Made by a program: the position numbers and the translations under genes. A DNA stretch of 1,818 nucleotides from Escherichia coli (lineage in GTDB: Bacteria > Pseudomonadota > Gammaproteobacteria > Enterobacterales > Enterobacteriaceae), in the NCBI RefSeq assembly GCF_003334385.1, contig NZ_QOWN01000108.1, one strand, 5' to 3'. Below are positions 1 through 1,678 of the stretch, in pieces. Numbering within the stretch: position 1 is the first letter of the stretch; every line of letters starts with the position of its first letter. The notes under the pieces were generated by a model, which saw only the letters and a program-made list of their open reading frames with translations, was not told the origin of the DNA and searched no databases.

Positions 1-632
1 GCCTGCCGGGGCAGCAGTATGATGAGGAGTCCGGCCTGTATTACAACCGCCACCGCTATTATGACCCGCTGCAGGGGAGGTATATCACTCAGGATCCGAT
101 TGGGCTGAAGGGGGGATGGAATTTTTATCAGTATCCGCTGAATCCGGTTCAGTATATAGATTCAATGGGACTGGCATCAAAATATGGACACTTAAATAAT
201 GGCGGATATGGAGCGAGACCCAACAAACCGCCTACGCCCGATCCAAGTAAATTGCCGGACATAGCGAAACAATTAAGACTGCCATATCCTATTGACCAGG
301 CCAGTAGTGCGCCTAATGTTTTCAAAACATTCTTCAGAGCATTAAGCCCTTACGACTACACACTGTATTGCAGGAAGTGGGTAAAACCAAATCTGACTTG
401 TACGCCACAGGATGATTCCCAGTATCCAGGGATGGATACAAAGACAGCAAGTGATTACCTGCCACAGACAAATTGGCCAACAACTCAATTACCACCAGGA
501 TATACTTGTGCAGAACCCTATTTATTCCCAGACATTAATAAACCCGATGGGCCAGCAACAGCAGGGATAGATGATTTGGGTGAAATTTTAGCTAAGATGA
601 AACAGAGAACATCGAGAGGAATAAGAAAATGA
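1..632 (+). CDS. Rhs-family polymorphic toxin, 3' end (5'-partial; codons in phase from position 3): conserved Rhs core terminus plus variable C-terminal toxin (CT) domain; stop TGA 630-632
   Basis: The frame is open from the window start to 632. Translation begins [57 protein letters not shown], which matches the conserved terminal block of the RHS repeat-associated core domain (E. coli RhsA-type cores end ...[30 protein letters not shown]...NP....DPLGL). The ATG at 165 given by the ORF track is internal (Met inside the demarcation motif), not the true start. Whether this is a full-length rhs or an orphan fragment (possibly ybfO/rhsO of E. coli K-12) cannot be decided from the window. Confidence 0.9.
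54..173 (+). other. Rhs core C-terminal signature block, ending in the core/CT demarcation motif [10 protein letters not shown] (144-173), a variant of the canonical PxxxxDPxGL
   Basis: Direct translation: [40 protein letters not shown]. Established knowledge: in Rhs/YD-repeat toxins the PxxxxDPxGL motif marks the end of the conserved core and the start of the variable toxin domain. Confidence 0.85.
174..629 (+). other. Variable C-terminal toxin (CT) domain of the Rhs protein, about 152 aa, activity unknown
   Basis: Sequence after DSMGL: [42 protein letters not shown]...[22 protein letters not shown]. It is proline-rich, has 3 Cys, and shows no HNH, HxxD, deaminase or other catalytic motif I can recognise by eye. 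Hand-counted GC is about 42% in 241-300, against about 59% in 1-120. Confidence 0.7.
614..619 (+). promoter_or_regulatory. Ribosome-binding site for the immunity gene, located inside the 3' end of the toxin ORF
   Basis: AGAGGA at 614-619, 9 nt before ATG 629. Confidence 0.6.
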
Positions 633-685
633 AAAGAGTTTTGTTCTTTTTGCTGATGATATTTGTTAGTTTTGGTGTTATAGCT
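629..685 (+). other. Predicted Sec signal peptide (19 aa) of the immunity protein; alternatively an uncleaved N-terminal membrane anchor
   Basis: [19 protein letters not shown] followed by DCEIQA. There is no lipobox (no L-x-[GAS]-C; an Asp separates Ala from Cys), so it is not a lipoprotein signal. Confidence 0.55.
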
Positions 686-1198
686 GATTGCGAAATACAA
701 GCTAAAGATCATGATTGTTTTACTATTTTCGCTAAGGGTACTATTTTTTCCGCGTTTCCTGTCTTAAATAATAAAGCCATGTGGAGATGGTATCAGAATG
801 AGGACATCGGTGAGTATTATTGGCAAACAGAACTGGGTACATGTAAAAATAATAAATTCACACCAAGCGGGGCGAGACTCTTAATTCGCGTCGGGTCACT
901 ACGCCTTAATGAAAATCATGCCATCAAAGGAACGTTGCAGGAGTTGATAAATACAGCAGAAAAAACGGCGTTTCTCGGCGATCGGTTTAGAAGTTATATA
1001 AGAGCGGGTATCTATCAAAAAAAGAGCAGTGATCCAGTTCAGTTGTTGGCAGTCCTTGATAATTCAATCATGGTAAAATATTTTAAAGATGAGAAACCAA
1101 CTTATGCTCGAATGACAGCACATCTCCCGAACAAAAATGAGTCTTACGAATGTTTAATAAAGATACAGCATGAACTAATTCGTAGTGAAGAGAAATAA
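629..1198 (+). CDS. ybfC: Putative Rhs immunity protein (RhsI-like), 189 aa, with N-terminal signal-peptide-like segment; uncharacterised
   Basis: ATG at 629 overlaps the toxin stop (ATGA, 629-632). A Shine-Dalgarno-like AGAGGA lies at 614-619, 9 nt upstream of the ATG. The N-terminus [22 protein letters not shown] has a basic n-region, hydrophobic core and V-x-A before the predicted cleavage site. Position immediately 3' of an Rhs CT domain is the canonical immunity-gene location. Hand-counted GC is about 30% in 631-720. The symbol ybfC is a tentative recollection of the E. coli K-12 189-aa YbfC downstream of ybfO and needs BLAST confirmation. Confidence 0.85.
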
Positions 1199-1423: not shown

Positions 1424-1678
1424 ATGGAACTTAAAAAATTGATGGAACATATTTCTATTACACCCGATTACAGACAAGCCTGGAAAGTGGTGCATAAATT
1501 GTCAGATATTCTACTGTTGACTATTTGTGCCGTTATTTCTGGTGCAGAAGGTTGGGAAGATATAGAGGATTTTGGGGAAACACATCTCGATTTTTTGAAG
1601 CAATATGGTGATTTTGAAAATGGTATTCCTGTTCACGATACCATTGCCAGAGTTGTATCCCAGGGAAAGATCACGTAA
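1424..1678 (+). pseudogene. ybfQ: Truncated H-rpt transposase N-terminal fragment (84 aa: 79 native codons plus 5 junction-derived codons QGKIT, then TAA)
   Basis: ORF 1424-1678 with RBS AAGGTG at 1414-1418. The last five codons are read from the leader of the second element copy. The symbol ybfQ is a tentative recollection of the 84-aa H-rpt fragment next to ybfC in E. coli K-12. Confidence 0.75.

Follow-up and report, generated by a model that had tools for sequence, protein, structure and literature searches.

The closest described counterparts of the locus studied here are the Rhs-CT/RhsI cassettes of Salmonella LT2 (STM0291/STM0292) and Dickeya (RhsA/RhsB). They have the same arrangement, in which a tip follows the core and the motif DPxG-(18)-D(P/S)xGL and a small ORF lies directly 3' (PMC3150448, PMC3967940, PMC7043789). 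In ancestral cells of Salmonella LT2, expression of the orphan rhsI is insufficient for protection (PMC3967940). The Salmonella orphan tips can be transcribed from an internal promoter, P2, which starts 89 nt 5' of the PxxxxDPxGL-coding sequence (PMC7043789). The E. coli ybfO-ybfC locus resembles these orphan Rhs-CT/RhsI modules in that ybfO lies 3' of a main rhs gene, shares core sequence with it and could recombine. It differs from the known Rhs-CT/RhsI pairs in that the ybfO tip and YbfC fall outside the described families, and in that YbfC has a predicted signal peptide. It also differs from the Salmonella LT2 orphan, as K-12 ybfO is without a proper start and the P2-equivalent sequence is degraded.

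A second point of comparison is provided by gene pairs coupled across a -4 overlap, such as trpB-trpA and the E. coli pairs of Huber et al. (2019, 2023). These are co-directional, overlap by ATGA and carry a Shine-Dalgarno (SD) sequence in the last 15 nt of the upstream gene. Of 14 native overlapping pairs from E. coli and Haloferax volcanii, 13 were strictly coupled, with a gene-dependent contribution of the SD (PMC6728339), whilst coupling is nearly lost once stop and start are about 20 nt apart (PMC6728339; PMC10666635). The same geometry was found at ybfO-ybfC, where the genes are co-directional, overlap by -4 and have an SD in the 3' end of the upstream gene. Unlike the described pairs, ybfO and YbfC are not expected to form a stoichiometric complex in the cytoplasm (the toxin would be held in the Rhs shell and YbfC would be exported), and in K-12 the upstream partner, ybfO, is a fragment.

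The third comparison is with the Tsi1, Tsi3 and Tli types, which are periplasmic immunity proteins of envelope-acting T6SS effectors. YbfC is like them in being small, predicted to be exported and encoded beside a presumed effector. No sequence similarity or specific structural similarity was found between YbfC and these types.

The ybfO'-ybfC cassette in the rhsC locus

The window, by which we mean the whole stretch of 1,818 nt that was analysed, matched the rhsC locus of E. coli K-12-type chromosomes at 100% identity. The RefSeq gene order at this locus is rhsC, ybfB, a ybfO fragment, ybfC, ybfQ and more ISAs1 pseudogenes. RefSeq labels the ybfO fragment as an RHS repeat-associated core domain-containing pseudogene, incomplete and 'missing N-terminus'. 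The following features were assigned in window coordinates.

3..632, + strand: 3' end of ybfO (orphan Rhs ORF), in frame 3 and open at the left window edge, with a TIGR03696 match
93..173, + strand: motif DPIG-(18 aa)-DSMGL demarcating Rhs core from toxin, read from the translation; relatives have DPxGL/DSxGL at the equivalent position
174..629, + strand: polymorphic C-terminal tip of 152 aa, the presumed toxin, Pro-rich, with three invariant Cys and the basic tail RGIRK
614..620, + strand: Shine-Dalgarno GAGAGGA for ybfC, made up of the Arg-Gly codons (AGA GGA) of the toxin tail and the preceding base
629..632, + strand: ATGA, in which the ybfC start ATG (629-631) overlaps the ybfO stop TGA (630-632)
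629..1198, + strand: ybfC, 189 aa, presumed cognate immunity protein, predicted to be exported; 'protein YbfC' in RefSeq, directly 3' of the tip family
629..685, + strand: signal-peptide-like N-terminus of ybfC, 19 residues followed by DC, from its n/h/c regions and an alignment of 21 homologues
1424..1678, + strand: ybfQ, 5' fragment of an ISAs1-family (H-repeat) transposase gene, with an NF033564 match at residues 29-79

Our preferred reading, which we hold to be reasonably probable, is that the locus is an Rhs C-terminal toxin/immunity cassette, ybfO'-ybfC, forming an 'orphan' module 3' of rhsC-ybfB with stop and reinitiation at the ATGA. The ybfQ fragment lies outside this module.

The right-hand part of the window contains a direct repeat of 158 nt, at 1281-1438 and 1661-1818, whose copies are 95% identical and 380 nt apart. 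The repeat comprises an ISAs1/H-repeat left end together with the opening codons of the transposase gene. Its first copy gives rise to ybfQ, a fragment of 84 codons that reads directly into the second copy. Some E. coli genomes aligned the whole window within 1660 nt and so have a single copy of the repeat, indicating either a duplication of 380 nt or a nested IS remnant at this site in K-12.

The Rhs origin of ybfO was clear from its residues 2-57, which matched TIGR03696 (Rhs_assc_core) at 72.7 bits against a cut-off of 32.5. The fragment also matched positions 1205-1261 of NF041261 (RHS_core), and its full-length relatives carry PF05593, PF25023 and PF03527. The conserved core ends with DPIG, 18 residues and DSMGL (93-173), after which the tip starts with ASKYGHL. 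The second half of this demarcation and putative autoprocessing motif, DSMGL (159-173), has Ser for the usual Pro in E. coli, Citrobacter and Pseudocitrobacter; members from Kluyvera and S. salamae keep DPKGL or DPMGL. The Met codon of DSMGL (ATG, 165-167) is the first in-frame ATG that would give the whole tip, and it is without an SD.

Sequence and profile searches of Pfam, NCBIfam, PADLOC, PHROGs and the PDB returned no match that would name the tip family. The AF2 model of the tip had a pLDDT of 37 and was unusable, and no literature was found on this tip or on the function of YbfC. The tip and YbfC form a rare candidate toxin/immunity family, with putative activities, outside any described family.

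In O157:H7 (at the rhsC locus), in AREA_499 (beside nikR) and in most relatives, the same tip ends a full-length Rhs protein of about 1400 aa, and VgrG is encoded upstream of rhs in some of the relative loci. In K-12, the open frame of ybfO begins directly behind the ybfB stop codon, the first ATG comes 39 codons into it and no convincing start was found.

Geometry and conservation of the ybfO-ybfC junction

The earlier note had described an overlap of the immunity start codon with the toxin stop codon, and this was borne out. The upstream ORF in frame 3 (...QRTSRGIRK*) ends with TGA at 630-632 and the next ORF starts with ATG at 629-631. The note was also right to place the SD inside the toxin coding sequence but gave its position as 614-619, one base off, as AGAGGA occupies 615-620. 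The full purine run, GAGAGGA, covers 614-620 and leaves a spacing of 8 nt from GGA to AUG. There is no alternative upstream start for ybfC because an in-frame TAA lies at 593-595. The last toxin codons, AGA GGA ATA AGA AAA, are thus also the ribosome-binding site of ybfC. The predicted SD duplex with the 16S 3' end had an energy of -6.0 kcal/mol in K-12 and of -7.6 to -12.5 kcal/mol in relatives. A consensus scan of the window found no promoter-like or terminator-like site between the ybfO and ybfC ORFs, and 'ybfOC' is given as a single operon (PMC3946193).

An overlap of this kind is neither rare nor a hallmark of toxin/immunity genes. The tetranucleotide ATGA occurred 24 times in the window, against 22.75 expected. 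A 70-kb sample of the same genome, composed of the 20-kb neighbourhood and a random 50-kb slice, held 47 other co-directional pairs of neighbours, of which 9 overlapped by exactly 4 nt; examples were ybgA/phrB and the majority of the ccm and nap genes. The -4 (ATGA) distance is the most frequent one among 2,987 unidirectional E. coli pairs and across 1,695 species (Huber et al., PMC10666635). Other Rhs toxin/immunity junctions in the fetched loci were -1 (rhsC/ybfB), +8 and +13. The description of the overlap as typical of toxin-immunity operons was therefore not upheld, ATGA being the modal junction of E. coli operons generally. For the same reason the overlap says little about toxin-immunity pairing and adds little to the support that the earlier note drew from it. 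It is unfit as evidence for the pairing, which rests instead on the constant adjacency of the two families. The overlap is real and conserved, but it was already known as the junction of two annotated E. coli K-12 genes. Its importance is small, given that ybfO and ybfC are presented as one operon and that a 4-nt overlap is the default bacterial junction.

Conservation of the junction was followed through the homologues of YbfC, which a word-indexed search found only in Enterobacteriaceae, down to 58% identity. Contexts were fetched from E. coli (the rhsC locus and a second locus beside nikR), E. albertii, Pseudocitrobacter, Citrobacter, Kluyvera, Salmonella salamae and metagenomic contigs. 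In every close-relative context fetched, a tip of the same family was followed by a YbfC homologue with an ATGA overlap. The ATGA and the AGAGG core were invariant in 10 lineages (YbfC at least 59% identical), and the junction consensus of the close relatives was GAGAGGAnnnAGAAAATGAA.

In a codon alignment of 11 sequences, the Arg codon of the SD was AGA in 11/11 and the Gly codon GGA in 10/11; the Arg at codon 3 of ybfC varied between AGA, CGA and CGC. This pattern hints at selection on the SD at the nucleotide level and is suggestive only. The codon evidence is weak: 47% of all Arg in these genes is encoded by AGA, the sequences come from related lineages, and the Arg-Gly residues show conservation of their own. 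Selection on nucleotides is moreover inseparable from selection on the toxin tail, as Arg-Gly-x-Arg-Lys is conserved as protein too. The 21 nt of the junction ranked 92 for conservation among 1011 windows in the cassette. The junction is thus conserved, yet its constraint does not exceed that of the coding stretches with the best conservation.

A profile of the tip, run against 1.84 billion representative proteins, matched 26 proteins, among which were distant Rhs tips with 33-40% identity to that of the window. Tip residues P60, Y63, C67, W70, C77, D95, P108, G110, C113, A131 and D135 were invariant even with these distant members included. Four of the distant loci were readable, and each encoded a signal-peptide-bearing protein directly 3' of the tip that was 21-34% identical to YbfC (E-values 7e-8 to 3e-26). 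The junction was ATGA at two of them and a +1 gap (TAGtATG) at another; at the last, the predicted start was a GTG that lies 14 nt within the toxin ORF. All four had an SD-like run in the last toxin codons. Judged by the refuting condition of the earlier note, homologues without the overlap, its claim stands in a weaker form, with ATGA present in 10/10 close lineages and the exact ATGA in only 2/4 distant loci. Across the full set the genes overlapped or lay within one base in 14/14 lineages. On this comparison, the long-range constant is close abutment with an internal SD, and the exact ATGA is dispensable.

A YbfC-family gene was found directly 3' of this tip family in 14/14 lineages examined, and it is this constant co-occurrence that is the evidence for pairing. 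Like the anatomy of the cassette and its conservation, the co-occurrence was observed directly; the toxin and immunity activities we infer.

The toxin tail was basic in all relatives, even at 33-40% identity (RGRK, GARK, NIRR and RARK at loci L023, L024, L026 and L027). The residues of the tail are those encoded by the purine-rich SD and the A-rich spacer. It may be the ribosome-binding site of the downstream gene, and not the function of the toxin, that has shaped the tail. A basic tail is kept even at L024, where the genes do not overlap. At L026 (1-2698), a full-length Rhs gene with a different tip (...CEPKCE) lies upstream of the orphan cassette, and an ORF of 188 aa without similarity to YbfC is called 53 nt inside it. 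The two are probably another toxin/immunity pair with a mis-called start.

YbfC as a candidate exported immunity protein

The N-terminus of YbfC combines a basic n-region with a hydrophobic core, and the residues at -3 and -1 are small. The signal peptide was assessed in 21 homologues by a manual check of the n-, h- and c-regions and of the (-3,-1) rule with a signal peptidase I site. Position -1 was A, G or S and position -3 was V, A, T or S throughout. Four Cys after the signal peptide were invariant (C21, C30, C72 and C175). A YbfC homologue is titled 'Periplasmic protein' in AFDB, and the AF2 model of YbfC is a beta-sandwich with a pLDDT of 74. Family searches returned no match for the YbfC family.

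Because it combines a signal peptide with four invariant cysteines, YbfC is probably periplasmic, and it probably acts in that compartment. Export of YbfC would in turn imply that the toxin is envelope-acting, with immunity directed against toxin delivered by siblings and not against the cell's own cytoplasmic toxin. Taken together, the predicted export of YbfC and the invariant Cys of both proteins (four in YbfC, three in the tip) suggest an Rhs toxin that acts on the envelope and whose immunity protein is exported. Both rhsC and ybfC are up-regulated in the HUS group of STEC (PMC6033998).

Downstream of ybfC in O157:H7 (L002 7469-8525) and AREA_499 (L003 7442-8617) we observed 'NTF2 fold immunity protein' and DUF6258 genes. 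These had no adjacent toxin tips and look like an orphan immunity array.

Probable translational coupling and alternative explanations

By analogy with the described overlapping pairs, ybfO and ybfC are likely to be translationally coupled, which is plausible since strict coupling was the outcome for 13/14 such pairs in H. volcanii and E. coli. A ribosome ending at UGA 630-632 would sit on AUG 629-631 and could reinitiate there, aided by the SD 8 nt 5'. O157:H7 and many relatives have the cassette joined to a full-length rhs, and there translation of the toxin would always bring synthesis of YbfC with it. In K-12 there may be little upstream translation to couple to, because ybfO is without an N-terminus or a proper start. 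Expression of ybfC in K-12 would then come from de novo initiation at its moderate SD, or from weak internal expression. If the immunity protein is exported, coupling would serve to have both proteins expressed together, not to neutralise the toxin one-to-one in the cytoplasm.

The main alternative is that the junction reflects compact packing only and that YbfC is made by ribosomes initiating de novo at its own SD, independently of toxin translation. The ATGA would then have been kept because the ybfC start and Lys2 dictate ATG-A(AA), with no indel having occurred. Such initiation is credible in that the SD is adequate for it and strong in most relatives (-7.6 to -12.5 kcal/mol), and the -4 overlap is the default geometry genome-wide. 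The +1 gap at one distant locus and the different start at another fit packing as well, as does K-12, where the upstream ORF is without a proper start although thousands of genomes have an intact ybfC ORF. Coupling is favoured instead by the strict coupling of nearly all native overlapping pairs (PMC6728339) and by the spacing itself. The genes were overlapping or abutted by at most one base in 14/14 lineages, whereas gaps of 8-13 nt or more are tolerated between the genes of other Rhs/immunity pairs. We regard packing alone as the less probable account, although it keeps an appreciable chance of being right. A different objection is that YbfC is some other exported protein travelling with the Rhs tip, in which case the overlap would be unrelated to neutralisation. 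Against this, T6SS effectors that act on the envelope as a rule have immunity proteins that are exported. YbfC also occupies the canonical immunity position directly 3' of the tip and co-varies with that toxin family only, in 14 lineages and at several rhs loci including orphan copies, so we consider a role other than immunity very unlikely.

Coupling could also depend on RNA structure, with a hairpin that hides the SD until the ribosome finishing the toxin opens it, leaving orphan immunity silent until fusion to rhs. The minimum-free-energy fold of K-12 contains a 13-bp G-U-rich helix that pairs the SD (614-626) with U-rich Phe/Leu codons of the signal peptide (639-651). The 121-nt stretch had a z-score of -2.3 and the K-12 SD a pairing probability of 0.99, and expression of the Salmonella LT2 orphan rhsI is too low to protect ancestral cells (PMC3967940). 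Across the family, however, covariation was absent (the share of paired cells was 86%, compared with 85% in column shuffles, 79/500 of which were as high), and the helix was absent from the RNAalifold consensus. Mean SD pairing probability was 0.57 in the 14 lineages, compared with 0.58 at nine unrelated E. coli ATGA junctions. A helix in K-12 is expected, because the purine run faces U-rich Phe/Leu codons, and we regard it as a by-product of composition. On these grounds an SD-hiding hairpin was rejected as a family feature, and structure-dependent coupling appears highly improbable. Stop and reinitiation at the ATGA, as described above, remains the preferred reading.

A broader proposal combines two ideas. 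In orphan Rhs modules, coupling would tie immunity to toxin translation and keep it nearly silent until fusion to an expressed rhs, so that unrecombined siblings would be sensitive, as in the phenotype of LT2. The second idea is that ybfO-CT/YbfC would be a family not yet described, whose toxin acts on the envelope and whose immunity protein is an exported beta-sandwich. We think this combination unlikely. Orphan modules such as ybfO'-ybfC offer a simple natural system in which to ask whether coupling limits the expression of orphan immunity.

The stretch homologous to P2 lies at 19-55 of the window, with ATGATG (19-24) in the -35 position, TACAAC (42-47) in the -10 position and an expected start near 55. 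A consensus promoter scan of the window did not pick up these P2-equivalent hexamers. Internal transcription of the orphan cassette in K-12 is doubtful, because the hexamers are weaker than the TTGACG/TACAAT of Salmonella. The strongest complement to the anti-SD in nt 1-1198 was GGGGAGG at 73-79 (-12.5 kcal/mol, minimum over 20-nt windows). It falls within the conserved Rhs core, just 5' of the DPIGL codons, and is followed by no canonical in-frame start codon; its placement is near that of the internal ORF1 start of Salmonella.
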